Of a DNA stretch of 64,000 nt, positions 6,398 through 45,832 are shown piece after piece. Under the pieces are notes generated by a model. It was not told where the DNA came from. It saw only the letters and a program-made list of their open reading frames with translations, and made no database searches. Positions within the stretch are counted from its first letter, which is position 1; each line of letters begins with the position of its first letter. The stretch comes from an uncultured Eubacteriales bacterium (GTDB lineage: Bacteria; Bacillota; Clostridia; Oscillospirales; Oscillospiraceae): the NCBI GenBank assembly GCA_900319465.1, contig ONOL01000001.1:32843-96842 (forward strand), in the 5' to 3' direction. A program made the translations under genes and the position numbers.

Positions 6398-7870
6398 ATG
6401 GACATGACATGGTTTGACGAGGTGGAGGCGCGCATCCCCAAGGGGAAGGTGCGCACACGTTTCGCTCCCTCCCCCACGGGATATATGCACGTCGGCAACC
6501 TGCGCACGGCGCTCTACACCTGGCTGATCGCCCGGCACGCAGACGGCACCTTCATTCTGCGCATCGAGGACACCGATCAGGGCCGTCTCGTCGAGGGCGC
6601 GGTGGACGTGATCTACAAGACCCTCGCCGAGTGCGGACTCGACCACGACGAGGGGCCGGACGTGGGCGGCCCGGTGGCCCCCTATATTCAGACCGAGCGC
6701 AGGCCCTTCTACGGCAGATACGCGGAGCTGCTCATCGAGCGCGGCCACGCCTACCGCTGCTTCTGTGAAAAGAGCGAGAGCGAGGAGGACTCCGGTGAAT
6801 TCGACCGGGGCGACGATCCCTGCCGCGCCCTCCCGCGCGAGGAGGCCGAGCGCCGCGCCGCAGCCGGCGAGCCTTTCGTCATCCGCCAGCGCATCCCCCA
6901 CGAGGGCACGACCACCTTCCACGACGAGATCTTCGGCGACATCACCGTGGAAAACAGCACGCTGGACGACCAGGTGCTCATGAAGCGGGACGGGCTGCCC
7001 ACCTACAACTTCGCAAACGTCGTGGACGACCACATGATGGGCATCACCCACGTCGTGCGCGGCAGCGAGTACCTCTCCTCCGCGCCGAAGTACAATCTGC
7101 TGTATCAGGGCTTCGGCTGGGACGTGCCCGCCTACGTACACTGCTCCCCCGTCATGCGTGACGCCCACAACAAGATGTCCAAGCGCCACGGCGATCCCTC
7201 CTACGAGGACCTGATCGCGCAGGGCTATCTGACCGAGGCGGTGCTCAACTATGTGGCGCTGCTGGGCTGGAGCCCCCGCGGCGAGCAGGAGATCTTCTCG
7301 CTCGGCGAGCTCAAGAACGTGTTCGAGATGAGCGGCATCTCCAAGTCCCCCGCCATCTTCGACATCGAAAAGCTGCGCCACTTCAACAGCGAGTACATCC
7401 GCGCCATGAGTCCGGAGGCCTTTGCCCGGGCCGCCGAGCCCTACATCCGCCAGGCGGTGAAGAACCCCGCCTATGACGCTCACGCGATCGCGGCGCTGCT
7501 GCAGCAGCGCACCGAGGTGCTCACCGAGATCCCGGAGAAGCTTGATTTCTTCGACGAGCTGCCCCAATACGGCACGGAGCTCTTCGTGCACAAGAAATCC
7601 AAGTCCGACGAGGCTTCCTCGCTGGCGGTGCTGCAGAAGGTGCTGCCCGTGTTCGAGGCGCTGGAAAGCTGGGACGACGAGAACATCCTCGGCGCCATGG
7701 TGAAGCTCGCGGAGGAGATGGGCGCGAAAAACGCGAAGGTCATGTGGCCCGTGCGCATCGCCGCGGCCGGCAAGGCCGTCACCCCCGGCGGCGCGGTGGA
7801 GATCTGCCGCATCCTCGGACGGGACGAGACCCTGCGCCGCCTGCATGTCGCGGTCGAAAAGCTTTCCTGA
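6398..7870 (+). CDS. gltX: glutamate--tRNA ligase
   Basis: 490 aa: VRTRFAPSPTGYMHVGNLRTALY (HIGH), KMSKRHG (KMSKS). RBS is AAAGGAG. Confidence 0.95.
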   Translation: MDMTWFDEVEARIPKGKVRTRFAPSPTGYMHVGNLRTALYTWLIARHADGTFILRIEDTDQGRLVEGAVDVIYKTLAECGLDHDEGPDVGGPVAPYIQTERRPFYGRYAELLIERGHAYRCFCEKSESEEDSGEFDRGDDPCRALPREEAERRAAAGEPFVIRQRIPHEGTTTFHDEIFGDITVENSTLDDQVLMKRDGLPTYNFANVVDDHMMGITHVVRGSEYLSSAPKYNLLYQGFGWDVPAYVHCSPVMRDAHNKMSKRHGDPSYEDLIAQGYLTEAVLNYVALLGWSPRGEQEIFSLGELKNVFEMSGISKSPAIFDIEKLRHFNSEYIRAMSPEAFARAAEPYIRQAVKNPAYDAHAIAALLQQRTEVLTEIPEKLDFFDELPQYGTELFVHKKSKSDEASSLAVLQKVLPVFEALESWDDENILGAMVKLAEEMGAKNAKVMWPVRIAAAGKAVTPGGAVEICRILGRDETLRRLHVAVEKLS

Positions 7871-11499: not shown

Positions 11500-11528
11500 A
11501 TTGTACCCGGCGGGCGGGAAAGGGGCAA
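11500..11528 (-). promoter_or_regulatory. sigma-A-type promoter for degV
   Basis: Minus strand: TTGCCC, 17 nt, TACAAT. Confidence 0.4.
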
Positions 11529-11580
11529 GCTACTGGGCCTCTCCCCTTCCCTACACCTGCCCGCCCTCCGGTAGAATCCG

Positions 11581-11618
11581 AAAAACCGGACTCTACTCTG
11601 AGTAGAGTCCGGTTTTTT
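11581..11618 (-). terminator. rho-independent terminator of pepF (symmetric A-run and T-run)
   Basis: AAAAA-CCGGACTCTACT-CTG-AGTAGAGTCCGG-TTTTTT. Perfect 12-bp stem. Confidence 0.8.
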
Positions 11619-11678
11619 CACGGCTTTGCGGGCTGATTGCACAGTTTTCCGGCAGGGCCACGCGCGGCGGCCCGCTTT

Positions 11679-13481
11679 TCACTCGCAGAGCTTCTCCATC
11701 TCCCCGAGCAGCTCGCCGAAGAGGCCGAGCGCGGCGTTCACCGGCTCGGGCGAGGACATATCCACCCCCGCGATCCGGAGTAGCGCGATGGGGTCGGCGC
11801 TGCTGCCGCCGGAGAGGAAGCGCTTGTAATCCGCAACCGCGCTCTCGCCCTCCGCGAGGATGCGGTTGGCGATGGCGACGGCCGCGGAGAAGCCGGTCGC
11901 ATACTGGAAGACGTAGTAGTTGTAGAAGAAGTGGGGGATGCGCGTCCACTCATAGGCGATCTGCGGATCGGACACCATGTCCGGCCCGAAGTAGCGCTTG
12001 TTGAGCGCAAGGTATTTCCCGCTCAGGCTCTCGGCGGTCAGCGCCTCGCCCCGTTCGGCCATGCGCCCCATCTCCAGCTCGAACTCGGCAAACATGGTCT
12101 GGCGGTAGATGGTGCCCTTGAACTGGTCGAGGAAGTGGTTGATGAGATAGGCCCGCTCCTTTTTGTCCGCGGTTTTGCCGAGCAGATAGCGCATGAGCAG
12201 CACCTCGTTGCAGGTGGAGGCCACCTCGGCCACGAAGATCACATAGTCGCTCGTGCAGACGGGCTGGTACTTTGTGCTGTGGTAGCTGTGCAGCGCGTGG
12301 CCCATCTCGTGCGCGAGCGTGAACATGCTGTCGAGCGTGTCCTTCTGGTTCAGAAGCACGTAGGGGTGCGGGCGGGCCGTGCCGGAGGAGTAGGCGCCGC
12401 CGCGCTTGCCGACGTTCTCATACACGTCGATCCAGCGGTTTTCAAAGCCCTCCCTCAGAAGCGCCGTGTAGTCCTCCCCGAGGACGGAGAGCGCGTCGAG
12501 CACGGTGGCCTTCGCCTCCTCGAAGGGGATCGTCCGCGCGCTGTCGGGGACGACGGGGGTATACACGTCGTACATATGCAGCTCCTCCACCCCGAGCAGC
12601 TTCTTGCGCAGGGCGACGTAGCGGTACATCTTATCCAGATTCGCGTGCACGGCCTCGATGAGCTTTGTGTAGACCTCCACGGGCACCTCCGTGCGGTCGA
12701 GGGCGGCCTCGAGCGTGCTGGCGTAGCCCCTCGCGTCGGCGAAGAAGCGCAGCTGCTTGAACTGCGCGTCCAGTGCGGCGGCCAGCGTATTCTTCATCTC
12801 CGAGAAGCGCTCGTAGAGCTTCTCAAAAGCGTCCCGGCGCAGGGTGCGGTCCGCGCTCTCGAGCAGGAGGCCGTAGGAGCCGTTCGTCAGGGTATGGCGG
12901 TTGCCCTCGCTGTCGATCGCGTCGGCAAAGCGCAGGTCCCCGTCGCGCAGGGCGTTGCCGATGTTGTCGGGCGCGTCGGCCATCTCCCCGGCCGCGGCCA
13001 GCAGGCGCTCCTCCGCGGGGGAGAGGATATGGGCCGCGCGGCGGCGGATCTGGTAGAGGCTGCGGCGATAGGTCTCCAGCCCGGGCTGGGCGATATAGAA
13101 AAGGTTCAGGGTGTCCTCGTCGATGGCCATGATCTCCGGCGCGGCAAAGGCCGAGGCGCTGGACGCCGCCACCAGCGTGGCGATGGCTTTGCCCCGCATA
13201 TCCTGGCAGCTTCCGTTGCCGGTGTCCTGGTCGGCCTTGCAGCCGGCGTAGCCGAAGAGCATACCGAGGCGCACTTCCAGCTCGTCCTCAAGCCGGAAGT
13301 ACGCGAGCAGGGCCTCCGCGCTCTCGCCCAGGCGCCCCTTGAAGGCGGCAATGCGCTCCGGCATCGCCTTCAGCGCCTCGTATTCCGCGAACCACTTTTC
13401 GTCGCTCTCGTACATATCCTGCAGGTTCCAGGTAAATTCCTCCGGCACTTGTTCGCGTGTCGGAATGTTCTTGTGATCCAT
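11679..13481 (-). CDS. pepF: oligoendopeptidase F (M3B family)
   Basis: 600 aa from the ATG at 13481 (MDHKNIPTREQVPEEFTWNLQDMY...). The zinc motif is HEMGHALHS. Confidence 0.9.
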   Translation of the reverse strand: MDHKNIPTREQVPEEFTWNLQDMYESDEKWFAEYEALKAMPERIAAFKGRLGESAEALLAYFRLEDELEVRLGMLFGYAGCKADQDTGNGSCQDMRGKAIATLVAASSASAFAAPEIMAIDEDTLNLFYIAQPGLETYRRSLYQIRRRAAHILSPAEERLLAAAGEMADAPDNIGNALRDGDLRFADAIDSEGNRHTLTNGSYGLLLESADRTLRRDAFEKLYERFSEMKNTLAAALDAQFKQLRFFADARGYASTLEAALDRTEVPVEVYTKLIEAVHANLDKMYRYVALRKKLLGVEELHMYDVYTPVVPDSARTIPFEEAKATVLDALSVLGEDYTALLREGFENRWIDVYENVGKRGGAYSSGTARPHPYVLLNQKDTLDSMFTLAHEMGHALHSYHSTKYQPVCTSDYVIFVAEVASTCNEVLLMRYLLGKTADKKERAYLINHFLDQFKGTIYRQTMFAEFELEMGRMAERGEALTAESLSGKYLALNKRYFGPDMVSDPQIAYEWTRIPHFFYNYYVFQYATGFSAAVAIANRILAEGESAVADYKRFLSGGSSADPIALLRIAGVDMSSPEPVNAALGLFGELLGEMEKLCE

Positions 13482-17172: not shown

Positions 17173-18225
17173 TCAGCTCTGCTGCCGCCGCCTGCGGAAG
17201 AAGCCGCCGGCGAGGCAGATCAGGACCGCGACGCCCGCCACCATTGCCGAGCCCACGACGCCGGACACCGTGGTGCCCGCGGGCGTGTCGCTGTTCGAGA
17301 AGGCGTAGTCGGGCAGGAACGCGGTCTTCTCCTGGATGCCCGCCGCCGTTTCGGAGGCTTTGCTCTTGAGGCCGTAGTCGTCCTCATCGAGCCCCATGTT
17401 CTCGCTGTAACCCGCCTCGCTGTTGCCGAAGAGCGCCCACTCCAGCCCGTCGGGGTTGGAGCTGGCAAGCAGGCTCAGACCGCCGCCGACCACGAGCACC
17501 ACCGCGGCCAGCACCGCGATCACGGCCTTCAGGGAGCGCTTTCCGCCCGCGCCCTCCGCCGGGCTCAGCTCCTGCAGGAGCTCGGGGCGGGATTCATACA
17601 CGAACAGCAGCACCGCCGCGGTGACCAGGCCCTCCACGAGGCCGATGGCCAGGTGGATCGGCTGCATCAGCGCGACGAAGGCGCCGAAGGGCAGCTCGGT
17701 GATGCCGGAAAGGCTGGTCTCCAGCACGACGGAGAAAGCGCCGAGCTGCAGCGTGATCACGCAGCCGAGGACGGAGGCGAGGACGATGCGCCCGCGCTGG
17801 GCGCCCTTCTCCTCCCCGAAGAGACGGCTCTTCACGATGGGGCGCCAGATCAGAAAATAGCCGACAAAGCAGCCGTAGAACGCCATGTTCCAGACGTTCG
17901 CCCCCAGCGCCATCAAGCCGCCGTCGGCAAAGAACAGGCATTGGATCGTGAGGATCACGATCATGGACAGGAAGCCCGCGTAGGGGCCGAGCAGCGCGGA
18001 GAGCAGCATACCGCCGCACATATGGCCGGAGGAGCCGGTGCCGGGGATGGTGTAGTTGATCATCTGCCCCGCGAAGACCAGCGCGGCCGTGACCGCCATG
18101 GTCGGGAGCTTCTGCGGCTCGTCGTCCTTTCTCAGCTTGTGGATGGATACGCCGGCAACGGAGCCGGACGCCACGTACATCGTCGCGGCTACGGCGGGGG
18201 CCAGCAGCGCGTCTGCCATATGCAT
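17173..18225 (-). CDS. cbiM: CbiM/NikM-family ECF substrate-capture component fused to a PDGLE (CbiN-like) domain
   Basis: 350 aa. The N-terminus MHMADALL is the processed His2 metal-binding end typical of CbiM/NikM. The C-terminal part contains SSNPDGLEWA (PDGLE domain) plus a final TM segment. Confidence 0.85.
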   Translation of the reverse strand: MHMADALLAPAVAATMYVASGSVAGVSIHKLRKDDEPQKLPTMAVTAALVFAGQMINYTIPGTGSSGHMCGGMLLSALLGPYAGFLSMIVILTIQCLFFADGGLMALGANVWNMAFYGCFVGYFLIWRPIVKSRLFGEEKGAQRGRIVLASVLGCVITLQLGAFSVVLETSLSGITELPFGAFVALMQPIHLAIGLVEGLVTAAVLLFVYESRPELLQELSPAEGAGGKRSLKAVIAVLAAVVLVVGGGLSLLASSNPDGLEWALFGNSEAGYSENMGLDEDDYGLKSKASETAAGIQEKTAFLPDYAFSNSDTPAGTTVSGVVGSAMVAGVAVLICLAGGFFRRRRQQS

Positions 18226-18295: not shown

Positions 18296-18318
18296 GCCCC
18301 CCGGGGGGATAGAAATGC

Positions 18319-18352
18319 AAAAAAAGCGCCCGGGGCGTCGCCCCGGGCGCGG
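18319..18352 (-). terminator. rho-independent terminator; copy 1 of a duplicated 28-nt GC hairpin
   Basis: Minus strand: GCGCCCGGGGC-GAC-GCCCCGGGCGC followed by TTTTTTT. The 28-mer AGCGCCCGGGGCGTCGCCCCGGGCGCGG (18325-18352) recurs exactly at 18561-18588. Confidence 0.7.
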
Positions 18353-18560: not shown

Positions 18561-18588
18561 AGCGCCCGGGGCGTCGCCCCGGGCGCGG
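18561..18588. repeat. copy 2 of the duplicated 28-nt GC hairpin
   Basis: Exact repeat of 18325-18352. It sits 9 nt after the glmM stop and has no U-tract on the minus strand. Confidence 0.8.
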
Positions 18589-18596
18589 TATGCTGT

Positions 18597-19943
18597 TTAT
18601 GCCAGATGTCCCTTGGCCTTGATGACCTCGATCACGGAATCGACGTACTTCTCGCAGACCTCGTCGCTCTCGGCTTCCACCATAACGCGGATAACCGGCT
18701 CAGTGCCGCTCTCGCGCACGAGGATGCGCCCGGTGTCGCCCAAGGCGTCGGCAACGGCCTTGACCGCCGCCTGCACGTCGGGATCGTTCTGCGCGTCGGG
18801 CTTGGACTTGACGCGCACATTCTTCAAAACCTGCGGATAGAACACCACGGGGGCGGCCAGCTCGCTCATGGGCTTGCCCTTGGCCAGCATGACCTCCATG
18901 AGCTTGAGGCTCGTGAGGATGCCGTCGCCGGTGGTCTCGTACTTGAGGAAGATGGTGTGGCCGCTCTGCTCGCCGCCGATGCGGTGGCCGTTCTGGACCA
19001 TGTTCTCGTAGACGTACTTGTCGCCGACCTTGGTCTTTTCATACTCGATGCCGACCTTGTCGAGCGCCTTGTAGAGGCCGAAGTTCGACATGACGGTGGT
19101 GACGACCTTGTTGTTGAGGAGCTTGCCGCGCTCCTTCATGTACAGGCCGTAGATATAGAGCGTATGGTCGCCGGTGACGACCTGGCCCTTCTCGTCCACG
19201 CAGAGGCAGCGGTCGGCGTCGCCGTCGTAGGCGAAGCCCACGTCCAGTCCGTTTTCCACCACGTATTTCTGCAGGTGCCCGATATGGGTGGAGCCGCAGT
19301 CGGTATTGATGTTATAGCCGTCGGGCTCGGCGTTCATGACGTAGGTCTTGGCGCCCAGCGCGTCGAACACCGCCTTGGCGATCTGCCAGGAGGCGCCGTT
19401 GGCGCAGTCGAGGCCCACCTTCACGCCCTTGAAGCTGTATTTCGACATGGAGATCAGATGGCCGATGTAGCGGTTGCGGCCCGCCACGTAGTCCACGGTG
19501 CGGCCGATGGCTTCCCGCTCGGCCACGGGGATCTCCAGCTTGCCGTCGATGTAGTCCTCGACCTTCAGGATCGTCTCCTCCTCCATCTTCTCGCCGCTGC
19601 CGTTGAGCAGCTTGATGCCGTTGTCGTAGAAGGGGTTGTGGGAGGCGGAGATCATGATGCCGCAGTCGAAATCGTCCACACGGGTGATGTAGGCGACCGA
19701 CGGGGTGGTGGTCACGTGCATGATATAGGCGTCCGCGCCGGAGGCCATCAGGCCGGTGCACAGGGCGTACTCGAACATATAGGAGGAGCGGCGGGTGTCC
19801 TTGCCGATGACGATCTTGGCCTTTTTGCCCTGGTTGGCGCCGTAGTACCAGCCGAGAAAACGGCCGATCTTGATGGCGTGCTCATAGTCCAGCGTTTTGT
19901 TCGCTTCGCCGCGGAAGCCGTCTGTGCCGAAATATTTGCCCAT
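18597..19943 (-). CDS. glmM: phosphoglucosamine mutase
   Basis: 448 aa from the ATG at 19943: MGKYFGTDGFRGEAN..., active-site SASHNP, GEQSGH. The start overlaps the nagB stop by 1 nt (TAATG). Confidence 0.95.
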   Translation of the reverse strand: MGKYFGTDGFRGEANKTLDYEHAIKIGRFLGWYYGANQGKKAKIVIGKDTRRSSYMFEYALCTGLMASGADAYIMHVTTTPSVAYITRVDDFDCGIMISASHNPFYDNGIKLLNGSGEKMEEETILKVEDYIDGKLEIPVAEREAIGRTVDYVAGRNRYIGHLISMSKYSFKGVKVGLDCANGASWQIAKAVFDALGAKTYVMNAEPDGYNINTDCGSTHIGHLQKYVVENGLDVGFAYDGDADRCLCVDEKGQVVTGDHTLYIYGLYMKERGKLLNNKVVTTVMSNFGLYKALDKVGIEYEKTKVGDKYVYENMVQNGHRIGGEQSGHTIFLKYETTGDGILTSLKLMEVMLAKGKPMSELAAPVVFYPQVLKNVRVKSKPDAQNDPDVQAAVKAVADALGDTGRILVRESGTEPVIRVMVEAESDEVCEKYVDSVIEVIKAKGHLA

Positions 19944-20734
19944 TACAGACGCTCCTTCCTCTCGATATCGAGGAAGTACTTGTAGGTATCCACGGTCAGC
20001 TCGCCGCAGGCGGCCTCGTCGCAGGCGATGATGGCGCCGTTGTGCATCTGCAGCGCGGAGCAGGTCCACTTGTGGCTGACGTTGCCCTCCACGGTGGCGG
20101 CGAGGGCGCGGGCCTTGTTGTGGCCGGAGATGAGCACGAGGACCTCCTTGGAATCGGTCACGGTGCCGATGCCGACGGAGAGCGCCTGCGCGGGGACCTT
20201 CTCGGGGTCGCCCCCAAAGAAGCGGGAGTTGACGATGCGGGTGTCGGTGGTCAGGTCGCGCACGCCGGTGCGGGAGCAAAGGGAGGTGAAGGGCTCGTTG
20301 AAGGCCAGGTGCCCGTCCACGCCGATGCCGCCCATGAAGAGGTCGATGCCGCCGTAGGAGGCGATCTTGGCCTCGTAGCGGGCGCACTCGCCCTCGGGAT
20401 CGTCGGTCATGCCGTTGAGGATGTTGATGTTCTCCGGCTTCATGTCCACAAGGTGGTCAAAGAGATTGTCGTGCATGAAGTACCAGTAGCTCTGGTCGTG
20501 CTCATGGGGCAGGCCGAGGTATTCGTCCATGTTGAAGGTGACGACGTTCCGGAAGCTCACTTCGCCCGCCTTGTTCCTCCGCACGAGCTCCTTGTACACG
20601 CCGATGGGGCTGGAGCCGGTGGGAAGGCCGAGCACGAAGGGGCGATCCTCCTTGTGGGCGTTGATCTTCGCGACGATGTAATCGGCCGCCCATTTGCACA
20701 TCTTGTCGTAATTGTCCTGGATCACAACACGCAT
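19943..20734 (-). CDS. nagB: glucosamine-6-phosphate deaminase/isomerase (NagB, ~266-aa E. coli-like type)
   Basis: 263 aa: FVLGLPTGSSPIGVYKEL...FNMDEY...GGIGVDGHLAFNEP. Confidence 0.9.
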   Translation of the reverse strand: MRVVIQDNYDKMCKWAADYIVAKINAHKEDRPFVLGLPTGSSPIGVYKELVRRNKAGEVSFRNVVTFNMDEYLGLPHEHDQSYWYFMHDNLFDHLVDMKPENINILNGMTDDPEGECARYEAKIASYGGIDLFMGGIGVDGHLAFNEPFTSLCSRTGVRDLTTDTRIVNSRFFGGDPEKVPAQALSVGIGTVTDSKEVLVLISGHNKARALAATVEGNVSHKWTCSALQMHNGAIIACDEAACGELTVDTYKYFLDIERKERL

Positions 20735-20757
20735 TTTTCGTTTCTCCTTTTCAGATA

Positions 20758-21414
20758 TCAGTATTTCTCAACGATGTCACCGCTGTTCTTGAAAATGCTG
20801 TTCTCGGGAACCACGCCGCGCACGCAGGAGGTTGGGTAGACGTTGCTGTGCCGCCCGATGACGGTACCGGGGTTGCAGACGCTGTTGCAGCCGACCTCCA
20901 CATAGTCGCCCAGCATGGCGCCGAACTTCTTGATGCCGGTCTCGATCTGCTCGGTGCCGTTGTGTACGACGACCAGCTTTTTGTCGCTTTTGACGTTGGA
21001 GGTAATGGAGCCCGCGCCCATGTGGCTGTAATAGCCGAGGATCGAGTCGCCCACGTAGTTGTAGTGGGGGGTCTGCACGTGGTCGAAGAGGATCACGTTC
21101 TTGAGCTCCACGGAGTTGCCGACGACGCAGTTCGCGCCCACGAGGGCGGAGCCGCGGATAAAGGCGCAGTGGCGCACCTCGGTCTCCGGCCCGATGATGC
21201 AGGGCGCGCCGAGATAGGCCGATGGGAAGACCTTCGCCGTCTTATGCACCCAGACGTGCTCGGAAACTTCCTCATAGTCCTCGCCAAGCGTCGGGCCGAG
21301 GCGCAGGATCAGGTCCTTGATGCCCTTGAGCGCCTCCCAGGGATAGGTAAAGCCGCGCAGGTAGTCCGCCGCGAGCGTATGGTCCAGATCGTATAGATCG
21401 CTGATGGTATACAT
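20758..21414 (-). CDS. left-handed beta-helix (hexapeptide-repeat) acyltransferase, GlmU C-terminal-domain-like (putative GlcN-1-P N-acetyltransferase)
   Basis: 218 aa with successive hexapeptide turns (IIGPETEVRHCAFIRGSALVGANCVVGNSVELKNVILFDHVQTPHYNYVGDSILGYYSHMGAGSITSN). It has no nucleotidyltransferase domain. A GGAGG RBS precedes the start. First gene after the glmS ribozyme. Confidence 0.65.
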   Translation of the reverse strand: MYTISDLYDLDHTLAADYLRGFTYPWEALKGIKDLILRLGPTLGEDYEEVSEHVWVHKTAKVFPSAYLGAPCIIGPETEVRHCAFIRGSALVGANCVVGNSVELKNVILFDHVQTPHYNYVGDSILGYYSHMGAGSITSNVKSDKKLVVVHNGTEQIETGIKKFGAMLGDYVEVGCNSVCNPGTVIGRHSNVYPTSCVRGVVPENSIFKNSGDIVEKY

Positions 21415-21439
21415 ATGCTGTTACTGCCTCCATTGATGA

Positions 21440-21592
21440 ACTGGGACTGCCTCGTGTCAAGAAAAGCTCTGTTACCGTGTTGATTCGGCTTTTTTCCTCT
21501 TCTCTGACGGCTCACGCAAGCCGTGGCAGCATCCGCCGAGTCTTTCGATCACTGCCAACCTCGTCGACCGGTCGCGGTCCTGGCGCTAACAG
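21440..21592 (-). ncRNA. glmS ribozyme: glmS ribozyme (GlcN6P-activated self-cleaving riboswitch)
   Basis: Minus strand reads GUU-A|GCGCCAGGAC-CGCGAC-CGGUC-GACGAGGU-UGGCAG-UGAUCGAAAGAC-UCGGCGGAUG-CUGCCA-CGGCUUGCGUGAGCCG-UCAGAGAAGAGGAAAAAAGC...GCUUUUCUU. This matches the conserved core blocks AGCGCCAGRAC, the P1 hairpin, GACGAGG, CGAA, UCGGCGGAUGC, the compensatory UGGCAG/CUGCCA helix (GGAGG/CCUCC in Bacillus), and the P3 and P4 hairpins. The predicted cleavage site is between 21587 and 21586. Confidence 0.8.
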
Positions 21593-21762
21593 GCCCCGGC
21601 CTCCTCCCCGGCCGGAACGTGCTTTGTTCGGGCGGCCGCATCCCGCGTGCAGTCCGTCGCACGGGATGCGGGGTCACCATACTGTTTTTGTATTGTACTC
21701 CGAAATCGCTCCGGCCGCAAGGAAAAGATACGGCCGGGGCGTCTCACGCCCGTAATATTTGT

Positions 21763-21791
21763 ATTTTACCATATTCTGTCGGCGTTTTCAA
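21763..21791 (-). promoter_or_regulatory. sigma-A-type promoter for the ribozyme-led operon
   Basis: Minus strand: TTGAAA, 17 nt, TAAAAT with a TGg extended -10. It lies ~165 nt upstream of the ribozyme cleavage site. Confidence 0.45.
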
Positions 21792-45696: not shown

Positions 45697-45742
45697 AAAA
45701 TGCCGGACGCGGGCCCGGAAAGGTTCCGGCCCTGCCCTGCAT

Positions 45743-45812
45743 CTTCGATAGTCCGGTCATTTACGGTGTCCGGGTAGAAACTTCAAATCCATATTATTTG
45801 CGATATATCGAA
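45743..45812 (-). promoter_or_regulatory. purine riboswitch aptamer, guanine class
   Basis: Minus strand: UUCGAUA-UAU-CGCAAAU-AAUAUGG-AUUUGAA-GUUUCUACC-CGGAC-ACCGUAAAU-GACCGG-AC-UAUCGAA. P1 is 7 bp. The conserved blocks UAUNNNNNNNAUAUGG, GUUUCUACC and CCGUAAAU are all present. The specificity position before the 3' P1 strand is C (as in B. subtilis xpt, ...CCGACUAUG), which indicates guanine/hypoxanthine. Confidence 0.85.
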
Positions 45813-45832
45813 CCCTATTGAATTATGACAGT

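Follow-up and report, generated by a model that had tools for sequence, protein, structure and literature searches.

The glmS ribozyme (Rfam RF00234) is the textbook metabolite-cofactor ribozyme, in which GlcN6P serves as cofactor for self-cleavage of the leader of the mRNA that encodes glucosamine-6-phosphate synthase; its canonical form lies in the 5' UTR of glmS in Bacillus subtilis, B. anthracis and Thermoanaerobacter tengcongensis, and reviews describe it as found only before glmS and as acting by repression only (PMC5473149, PMC6765202). The enzyme NagB, by contrast, is described in E. coli as an allosteric hexamer (PDB 1CD5/1FS5) of amino-sugar catabolism that is induced by amino sugars together with nagA and nagE, although an anabolic NagB-family enzyme is established in Giardia and Entamoeba, organisms that lack GlcN6P synthase (PMC4281351). 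Two further systems bear on the locus analyzed here, namely the bifunctional sugar-1-P nucleotidylyltransferase/GlcN-1-P N-acetyltransferases represented by bacterial GlmU and by ST0452 of Sulfolobus tokodaii, and an HDV-like ribozyme, drz-Fpra-1, that lies upstream of glmM in Faecalibacterium prausnitzii (Passalacqua et al., 2017, as cited in PMC6765202). The original prediction, made from sequence alone, was that a glmS ribozyme controls an operon that contains a GlmU-C-like acetyltransferase, nagB and glmM but no glmS, and that NagB is used there anabolically as a GlmS substitute, with the whole branch from GlcN6P to GlcNAc1P under feedback control by one ribozyme. Analysis of the window (the whole 64-kb stretch of DNA from an uncultured Eubacteriales bacterium) confirms that the observation is real, whereas the interpretation placed on it is supported only in part.

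A covariance-model scan of the whole window finds RF00234 at 21450-21598 on the minus strand with a score of 65.9 bits against a gathering score of 37 (E = 6e-13), over the full model (positions 1-167 of 167). The cleavage site A/GCGCC falls between A21587 and G21586, and the GACGAGG and UCGGCGGAUG core is present, as are helices P1 (which is short), P2, P3, P4 and P4.1. In an alignment of 42 cassette ribozymes the core columns are invariant, and 15 of 30 predicted pairs show compensatory double changes. Both strands of the double pseudoknot (the 5' GCGCC strand and the GGCG of UCGGCGG) are present and complementary (CGCC/GGCG), but as they never vary the alignment offers no covariation for this pairing, which the covariance model does not represent either. 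The coordinates originally given (about 21440-21592 for the ribozyme and 18597-21791 overall) are accurate to within a few bases, and the upper limit, 21791, coincides with a promoter-like site at 21763-21791 on the minus strand (TTGAAA, a 17-nt spacer and TAAAAT with an extended -10 TG; 10 of 12 consensus matches), a motif that is shared with the closest relative (locus L009) in an alignment and whose function is inferred. The intervening 5' leader (21599-21762, minus strand) contains a G+C-rich hairpin of roughly 12 bp at about 21636-21671 that is not conserved in relatives with the same gene order, and no Rfam family matches this leader at E <= 1.

The first gene follows the ribozyme after 35 nt with no terminator-like site between, and a GGAGG ribosome-binding site (21427-21431, minus strand) lies 12 nt before its ATG. 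It encodes a 218-aa left-handed beta-helix (LbH) acetyltransferase (20758-21414, minus strand) with Pfam matches to Hexapep and LbH; its best NCBIfam match is the C-terminal part (positions 215-393 of 393) of TIGR03992 Arch_glmU (E = 1e-40), although scores for both bifunctional models (TIGR01173, TIGR03992) are below the cutoffs, consistent with a protein that has no nucleotidyltransferase domain and is homologous to the C-terminal GlcN-1-P acetyltransferase domain of ST0452 and GlmU. The GlmU acetyltransferase residues R333, E349, K351, H363, Y366, A380, N386 and K392 are kept in all 80 homologues, with the changes N377H and S405C. After a gap of 23 nt comes nagB (19943-20734, minus strand; 263 aa; TIGR00502, 374 bits against a cutoff of 236.9), whose stop overlaps the start of glmM (TAATG). 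The glmM gene (18597-19943, minus strand; 448 aa) scores 536 bits against a cutoff of 447.6 for TIGR01455 and has four PGM/PMM Pfam domains and the SASHNP active-site motif. A 25-nt perfect palindrome, GCGCCCGGGGCGACGCCCCGGGCGC, lies 10 nt after the glmM stop (18562-18586) and has no T-run; a second copy at 18316-18350 (minus strand) is followed by TTTTTTT and is the probable intrinsic terminator of the operon. Translated searches with E. coli GlmS, the GlmU N-domain, NagA and NagE find none of them in the 64 kb, and the ribozyme therefore lacks, within the window, the glmS neighbor by which its family is usually described (a description that is not a structural requirement).

This arrangement is not unique to the window. 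The best 80 of more than 593 related species genomes all carry the cassette, and in 56 of these 80 loci the ribozyme immediately precedes it (41 before nagB and 15 before LbH), at 17-250 nt from the first gene and with a median gap of 45 nt. The remaining 24 loci have no detectable ribozyme, including all 11 loci with the order nagB-glmM-LbH. Rfam scores lie above the gathering score in every case tested. The GC content of the cassette tracks that of the host genome (0.37-0.62, with LbH GC3 of 0.24-0.90) while the proteins remain 78-97% identical; the cassette is therefore native and under very strong purifying selection, and NagB (mean 89.7%) is no less constrained than GlmM (86.7%). In a sample of 80 metagenomic ribozyme contigs, 10 ribozymes precede nagB or LbH rather than glmS, and one of these (L126) represents an unrelated lineage in which a 106.8-bit ribozyme lies directly before a short-type nagB. 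The cassette ribozymes form their own sequence subgroup, as an nhmmer profile built from them scores them at 97-142 bits, against 81 bits or less for the ribozymes that precede glmS.

The NagB protein belongs to the E. coli-type (hexameric) subfamily, with about 60% identity in the PDB matches, the same length and the C-terminal helix present. The catalytic residues D72, D141, H143, E148, R172 and K208 are conserved (H143 in 72 of 73 clade members). However, the GlcNAc6P allosteric site (Y121, D141, E148, S151, R158, K160 and Y254, as listed in PMC4281351) is incomplete: R158G, K160R and S151T are found in all 73 clade members, whereas Y121, D141, E148 and Y254 are kept, and residue 161 is also changed (T161D in the window, T161D/N in the comparison with E. 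coli).

The explanation favored here, with somewhat better than even confidence, is that a functional glmS ribozyme forms the 5' leader of a three-gene transcript encoding the LbH acetyltransferase, NagB and GlmM. In this view accumulation of GlcN6P would promote self-cleavage between A21587 and G21586, and the 5'-OH product would be degraded as in Bacillus, such that all three enzymes would be made only when GlcN6P is scarce. NagB, lacking Arg158 in its activator site, would run mainly in the aminating direction (Fru6P + NH4+ to GlcN6P) in the ammonia-rich rumen or gut, and GlmM and the acetyl-CoA-driven LbH enzyme would pull this thermodynamically unfavorable reaction toward GlcNAc-1-P and on to UDP-GlcNAc; NagB would therefore act as an ammonium-dependent GlcN6P synthase, alone or alongside the glutamine-dependent GlmS. 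The identity of the ribozyme, the anatomy of the operon, its conservation and covariation, the altered allosteric site and the presence of glmS in the operons of relatives are established by the analysis, whereas actual GlcN6P-dependent cleavage, the OFF sign of regulation, the direction of NagB flux and the substrate of LbH are inferred, in the absence of experimental evidence from these organisms.

Support for an anabolic NagB is thus circumstantial, although several independent lines favor a biosynthetic rather than a catabolic role for this clade: its remodeled allosteric site, its conservation equal to that of the housekeeping GlmM, its linkage to glmM and to a GlcN-1-P-acetyltransferase-like protein, and the ribozyme-nagB unit of the unrelated lineage L126. 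In addition, glmS lies in the same ribozyme-led operon in the relatives L033 (with a 14-nt gap) and L034, takes nagB's place in L040, and occurs as ribozyme-glmS-LbH in a distant contig of 27% GC (L170), and the regulatory sign must therefore suit a synthase. The equilibrium constant is 0.2 M and the Km of the E. coli enzyme for NH4+ is 31 mM (PMC11593775), a high value that counts against the proposal; rumen ammonia is in the millimolar range. That NagB serves as a GlmS substitute is not shown, as the search for glmS was confined to the 64-kb window and GlmS coexists with NagB in the same operon in several relatives (L033, L034, L060, L070, L083 and L022), so that NagB may supplement GlmS rather than replace it and is not necessarily the source of GlcN6P. 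The original argument that repression by GlcN6P has the wrong sign for a catabolic deaminase is also weaker than stated, because GlmM and LbH consume GlcN6P or GlcN1P and would be repressed together with NagB, and one relative (L088) has ribozyme-LbH-glmM with no nagB at all; the regulatory sign alone therefore does not fix the direction of NagB. Nor is LbH the only GlcN-1-P acetyltransferase in at least one close isolate, YRB3002, which carries a full-length canonical GlmU 1.5 kb downstream, making the role of LbH redundant or different.

The co-occurrence of GlmS and NagB in those six relatives, the thermodynamic preference for deamination and the control of LbH-glmM where no nagB is nearby (L088) also leave possible, although less likely, that NagB is an equilibrium buffer or relief valve rather than a net synthase, with GlmS encoded in the operon or elsewhere making GlcN6P, the reversible NagB clamping it near [Fru6P][NH4+]/Keq and draining any excess, and the ribozyme simply scaling the whole GlcN6P node (NagB, GlmM and LbH) to demand. 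Against this, co-expression of a synthase and a deaminase from one mRNA would give a glutamine-wasting futile cycle unless ammonia is high, in which case NagB is net anabolic anyway; repression of a relief valve just when GlcN6P is high is counter-productive; most loci (for example the window, and 16-kb loci such as L010) show no glmS nearby; and L040 has glmS exactly where nagB sits in the commonest gene order. A considerably less likely alternative is an ON switch, in which cleavage removes an inhibitory or destabilizing leader, for example the hairpin at 21636-21671, so that GlcN6P induces its three consumers, including a catabolic NagB. Substrate induction would be coherent, since all three gene products act on GlcN6P or on its immediate product, about 165 nt of leader with a strong hairpin precedes the cleavage site, and 5'-OH RNAs are reported to be stable in bacteria that lack RNase J-type decay (Collins et al., 2007). 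However, closely similar ribozymes head operons that include glmS (L033, L034, L170), where an ON switch would give positive feedback on GlcN6P synthesis, the leader and its hairpin are not conserved, and no ON-acting glmS ribozyme is known.

Least likely of all is that the ribozyme is a relic left behind after glmS was lost or moved and no longer regulates anything. The presence of glmS next to the cassette in some relatives (L022, L026, L040) does suggest an ancestral ribozyme-glmS operon, and the ribozyme is undetected in 24 of 80 loci, but the invariance of the core, the compensatory changes across genomes of widely differing GC3, the retained position before the first gene in 56 loci and the scores above the gathering score all speak against decay. 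At the other extreme, the evidence does not rule out, although it makes no better than unlikely, that this bacterium and many of the several hundred rumen and gut Firmicutes species carrying the cassette have no GFAT at all; the ribozyme-controlled NagB would then be the sole, essential GlcN6P synthase, assimilating free ammonium directly into peptidoglycan precursors, and the ribozyme would be the feedback regulator of an ammonium-dependent hexosamine pathway that bypasses glutamine and saves ATP, a pathway not previously recognized in bacteria.

What is new is that in a large, ecologically important group of rumen and gut Firmicutes the glmS ribozyme heads nagB-LbH-glmM operons, which widens the known regulon of this riboswitch class. 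The prediction that a NagB clade with a remodeled allosteric site works as an ammonium-dependent GlcN6P synthase is specific and testable and, if correct, would change how cell-wall precursor supply and nitrogen economy are modeled in ruminal bacteria. Automatic pipelines would annotate these genes as amino-sugar catabolism, and the finding also bears on the design of antibacterials targeted to the glmS ribozyme, because the target gene set differs between lineages.

Compared with the canonical riboswitch of B. subtilis, B. anthracis and T. tengcongensis, the RNA is of the same family and likewise sits at the 5' end of an mRNA of hexosamine metabolism, but the genes downstream are an LbH acetyltransferase, nagB and glmM instead of glmS. 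The Giardia and Entamoeba deaminases are used in the aminating direction to feed hexosamine polymer synthesis, are insensitive to GlcNAc6P and conserve only part of the E. coli allosteric-site residues (PMC4281351), which resembles the loss of Arg158 throughout the present clade; those organisms are, however, eukaryotes that regulate the enzyme transcriptionally during encystation, whereas here the organisms are bacteria, control is inferred to be by ribozyme, glmS is present in at least some relatives and an aminating flux is hypothetical. E. coli NagB is of the same subfamily with all catalytic residues conserved, but differs in its allosteric residues and in its co-regulation with nagA and nagE, neither of which is found in the window. 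The LbH protein aligns with the C-terminal domain of ST0452 and GlmU (PDB 2GGO and 5Z09, E = 4e-22) and keeps the catalytic His/Tyr/Asn/Lys set, yet is a stand-alone protein, its substrate being inferred, that coexists with full-length GlmU in YRB3002. Finally, drz-Fpra-1 is likewise a self-cleaving RNA next to glmM in a gut member of the Clostridia, with activity reported to be modulated by GlcN6P, but it belongs to a different ribozyme class and has a different position, since the overlap of nagB and glmM in the window leaves no room for an RNA element between them.

Scanning of the 64-kb window against Rfam 15 returned two matches above the gathering score, one of which is the glmS ribozyme (RF00234) at 21450-21598 on the minus strand, with a score of 65.9 bits against a gathering score of 37, E = 6e-13, and all 167 model positions aligned; the invariant A|GCGCC places the cleavage site between A21587 and G21586. 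Downstream on the same strand lie three genes. After 35 nt and a GGAGG ribosome-binding site comes a 218-aa ORF (21414-20758), whose only domain is a left-handed beta-helix (LbH) and which matches the C-terminal acetyltransferase part of archaeal GlmU (TIGR03992 positions 215-393, E = 1e-40). It is followed after a 23-nt gap by nagB (20734-19943; TIGR00502, 374 bits against a cutoff of 237), and then by glmM (19943-18597; TIGR01455, 536 bits against 448), which overlaps the nagB stop in TAATG. A sigma-70-like promoter (TTGAAA, 17 nt, TG-TAAAAT) lies at 21791-21763, and the next gene upstream, encoding a cardiolipin-synthase-like PLD protein, is divergent. When the window was searched by tblastn with E. 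coli GlmS, the GlmU N-domain, NagA and NagE, none of these was found. Every element of the arrangement described in the original prediction, a glmS ribozyme heading an operon of an acetyltransferase, nagB and glmM without glmS, is therefore correct.

A perfect 25-nt G+C-rich palindrome, GCGCCCGGGGCGACGCCCCGGGCGC, follows glmM at 18562-18586 and recurs at 18326-18350, 236 nt away, so that the two copies bracket the spacer between glmM and cbiM; none is expected by chance. Only the distal copy is followed by a T-run (T7), which makes it a terminator-like site. The length of the spacer differs between metagenome copies of the same locus (334 nt in copy L002 against 372 nt in copy L001). The operon is followed by a cbiM(-PDGLE)-cbiQ-cbiO ECF-type cobalt/nickel transporter (17173-18225 (-) and downstream). 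A second regulatory RNA was sought both in the leader and in the 370-nt glmM-cbiM spacer, but nothing scored credibly at E <= 1; the leader, including a roughly 12-bp G+C-rich hairpin at about 21636-21671 (-), is not conserved in relatives. Elsewhere in the window, a purine riboswitch (RF00167, 69.4 bits) at 45729-45830 (-) lies upstream of a gene for a Bmp/PnrA-like ABC-transporter substrate-binding protein, which is an ordinary association.

The arrangement is a conserved one. The exact 218-aa protein occurs on contigs in 308 blocks of the assembly collection, including ENA metagenome assemblies, mostly from cattle-rumen projects, with the same synteny. A scan of one genome per GTDB species found more than 593 species with a close relative, of which the best 80 loci (designated L009-L088) were analyzed; these are mostly rumen MAGs, plus the isolates "Ruminococcaceae bacterium" YRB3002 (FMTG01) and P7 (FMUA01). 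All 80 carry the LbH gene together with glmM, nagB or both: 68 have all three, nagB is seen in 73 and glmM in 77. Identities to the window proteins are 85-97% for LbH, 81-97% for NagB and 78-94% for GlmM. As a simple regular expression for the ribozyme missed 11 loci, detection was instead performed using an nhmmer profile spot-checked with Rfam, which finds the ribozyme immediately upstream of the first cassette gene in 56 of the 80 loci, directly before nagB in 41 and before LbH in 15, with a median gap of 45 nt. The order ribozyme-nagB-LbH-glmM occurs in 40 loci, ribozyme-LbH-nagB-glmM (the order of the window) in 7, ribozyme-LbH-glmM-nagB in 4, and nagB-glmM-LbH, without ribozyme, in 11. 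In an alignment of 42 of these ribozymes the catalytic core never varies, and 15 of 30 predicted pairs show compensatory double changes, for example A-U to C-G in P1 (20 sequences) and A-U to G-C in P4.1 (18 sequences).

Because the protein identities are high across genomes labelled as different families and even classes (Lachnospiraceae, Ruminococcaceae, Anaerovoracaceae, Acidaminococcaceae, Erysipelotrichaceae), with GC running from 0.35 to 0.65, it was asked whether recent horizontal transfer could explain them. It was rejected: cassette GC (0.37-0.62) and LbH GC3 (0.24-0.90) match each host genome, and identities sit at a plateau of 85-90% both within and between gene-order types. The flanking genes are unrelated between loci. 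The cassette is therefore long resident in very different genomes and under unusually strong purifying selection, and is neither a recent mobile insert nor a decaying relic, although older transfer is not excluded. Identities of 78-97% are unusual for metabolic enzymes, and point to extreme constraint (perhaps a complex) or to old lateral spread.

Beyond the three cassette genes, the only recurring neighbors were glmS (9 loci by tblastn), an F420-ligase-like gene (10 loci) and a stand-alone NTP_transferase (6 loci), the last two occurring only in loci with the order nagB-glmM-LbH. The NTP_transferase (PF00483), of 302 aa, and the F420-ligase-like gene recur within a few kb of the ribozyme-less cassettes (L065, L067, L068, L075, L076, L084), and the transferase could be the separate uridylyltransferase partner of LbH; neither gene is found in the window.

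To gauge how common the arrangement is among glmS ribozymes, the metagenome collection was scanned with a generic core pattern, and the genes downstream were classified on 80 contigs, an arbitrary sample, so that the fractions are only indicative. The ribozyme precedes glmS on 66 contigs and nagB or LbH on 10, while 4 contigs end before any gene. Nine of the ten belong to the same cassette clade. The tenth, L126 (metagenome contig LSQX01286677.1), represents an independent lineage, in which a 106.8-bit ribozyme at 6682-6834 (-) lies directly before a short, monomeric B. subtilis-type nagB (TIGR00502, 302 bits); a fused AmmeMemoRadiSam-type protein and a radical-SAM gene follow, and then the usual cdaA-cdaR-glmM operon, with no glmS on the 9.7-kb contig.

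The NagB encoded in the cassette belongs to the hexameric subfamily of E. coli, Vibrio and human and not to the monomeric Gram-positive one, the best PDB matches being 7LQM, 5HJ5, 3HN6 and 1CD5, against 2BKV at much lower scores. The catalytic residues D72, D141, E148, R172 and K208 are conserved in all 73 clade sequences, and H143 in 72. However, of the seven residues reported to bind the activator GlcNAc6P in E. coli (Y121, D141, E148, S151, R158, K160, Y254; PMC4281351), three are changed in every member, R158 to Gly, K160 to Arg and S151 to Thr, and the neighboring T161 is Asp or Asn. The same paper attributes the GlcNAc6P insensitivity of the anabolic Giardia enzyme to partial loss of these residues.

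GlmM is a standard GlmM with the SASHNP motif; in the loci with the order nagB-glmM-LbH it lies near cdaA-cdaR, the usual home of the housekeeping glmM. The LbH protein is closest to the C-terminal domain of Sulfolobus tokodaii ST0452 (2GGO and 5Z09, E = 4e-22) and to the GlmU acetyltransferase domains, and equivalents of E. coli GlmU R333, E349, K351, H363, Y366, A380, N386 and K392 are kept in all 80 homologues; a GlcN-1-P N-acetyltransferase activity is therefore plausible, as inferred from sequence alone. In YRB3002 (locus L010) a canonical full-length glmU (11504-12967), followed by pth and mfd, lies 1.5 kb downstream of the ribozyme-nagB-LbH-glmM operon. The stand-alone LbH enzyme is thus additional to GlmU there, not a replacement.

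The gene glmS lies within 8 kb of the cassette in 9 of the 80 loci. In L033 the order is ribozyme-LbH-nagB-glmM-glmS, with a 14-nt gap before glmS, and in L034 it is ribozyme-nagB-LbH-glmM-GT2-glmS, with no second ribozyme. L060 and L083 have nagB-LbH-glmM-glmS; in L070 glmS lies 4 kb downstream on the same strand; L022 has glmS-nagB-LbH-glmM, and L026 has glmS-ribozyme-LbH-nagB-glmM. In L040, which has glmS-LbH-glmM and no nagB, glmS occupies the slot that nagB holds in the commonest order. A distant 27%-GC contig, L170, has ribozyme-glmS-LbH. It follows that the cassette is part of de novo UDP-GlcNAc synthesis and is historically tied to glmS. Furthermore, very similar ribozymes regulate operons that contain glmS, where an ON switch would give positive feedback on GlcN6P synthesis, and the regulatory sign is therefore inferred to be the classical OFF. 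Finally, NagB and GlmS can be produced from one mRNA, which is a glutamine-wasting futile cycle if NagB deaminates but is sensible if both are GlcN6P synthases that use different nitrogen donors. The same data show that an operon without glmS does not mean a genome without glmS.

What the analysis itself establishes is a genuine ribozyme in a 5' leader, the tri-cistronic anatomy, selection on both RNA and proteins, the altered allosteric site, and the presence of glmS in the same operon in relatives; actual cleavage, the OFF sign of regulation by GlcN6P, the direction of NagB flux and the acetyltransferase activity of LbH are inferences. In Bacillus, GlcN6P-dependent cleavage leads to rapid mRNA decay (Collins 2007, as cited in PMC5473149), and by analogy GlcN6P would turn the operon off here. 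NagB would work mainly in the direction Fru6P + NH4+ -> GlcN6P. With Keq = 0.2 M (PMC11593775), 1 mM Fru6P and 10 mM NH4+ give about 50 uM GlcN6P at equilibrium. Rumen ammonia is in the millimolar range. GlmM and an irreversible acetyl-CoA-dependent step would pull the flux, which may explain why an extra acetyltransferase is co-expressed. That the ribozyme is real is all but certain, and that it controls the operon as an OFF switch is likely; that NagB is net anabolic under physiological conditions is only somewhat more probable than not, and that it fully replaces GlmS in this genome remains doubtful.

The original prediction, that a ribozyme repressing at high GlcN6P has the wrong sign for a catabolic deaminase and that NagB therefore acts anabolically as a GlmS substitute, is thus borne out only in part. 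GlmM and, by inference, LbH also consume GlcN6P or its product and would be repressed by it, and one locus, L088, has ribozyme-LbH-glmM with no nagB at all; the ribozyme would thus be used as a pathway-sufficiency sensor, and the argument from sign alone does not fix the direction of NagB. The stronger arguments are the change in the allosteric site, the housekeeping-level conservation, the co-operonic or position-swapped glmS, the independent case of L126, and the lack of nagA or transporter genes nearby. Among the relatives, a NagE-like PTS gene is seen only in L087 and nagA only in L077, a MAG labelled Erysipelotrichaceae that has the cassette without a ribozyme, with nagA 2 kb upstream and a second, short-type nagB (41% identity) 1 kb downstream (L077 4677-5816 and 11876-12616), suggesting a division of labor between two NagB paralogues.

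Of the alternatives, the one that retains some weight, although it is considered less likely than an anabolic NagB, is that NagB serves as an equilibrium buffer or relief valve alongside a GlmS encoded elsewhere. An ON-acting ribozyme that induces consumers of GlcN6P is improbable, as both the glmS-containing operons and the non-conserved leader argue against it, and a relic ribozyme is more improbable still in view of the covariation and the invariant core.

Both the RNA and the enzymes belong to known families, and it is their combination that is not described in the literature searched. Full-text literature searches pairing the glmS ribozyme with nagB or deaminase, or with rumen or ruminococcal bacteria, found nothing relevant, and the reviews consulted likewise do not describe the combination, although an earlier mention, for instance in the main surveys of glmS ribozyme distribution (McCown 2011, PMC3062183; McCown 2012, PMC5315370; Ferre-D'Amare 2010, PMC3409577; Collins 2007, PMC2113035), cannot be excluded. 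In the cassette described here a glmS ribozyme heads nagB-containing operons without glmS, in hundreds of species, and does so together with a NagB clade that, within the E. coli-type hexameric subfamily, has lost a key allosteric residue; it would imply an ammonium-dependent route to GlcN6P in bacteria.
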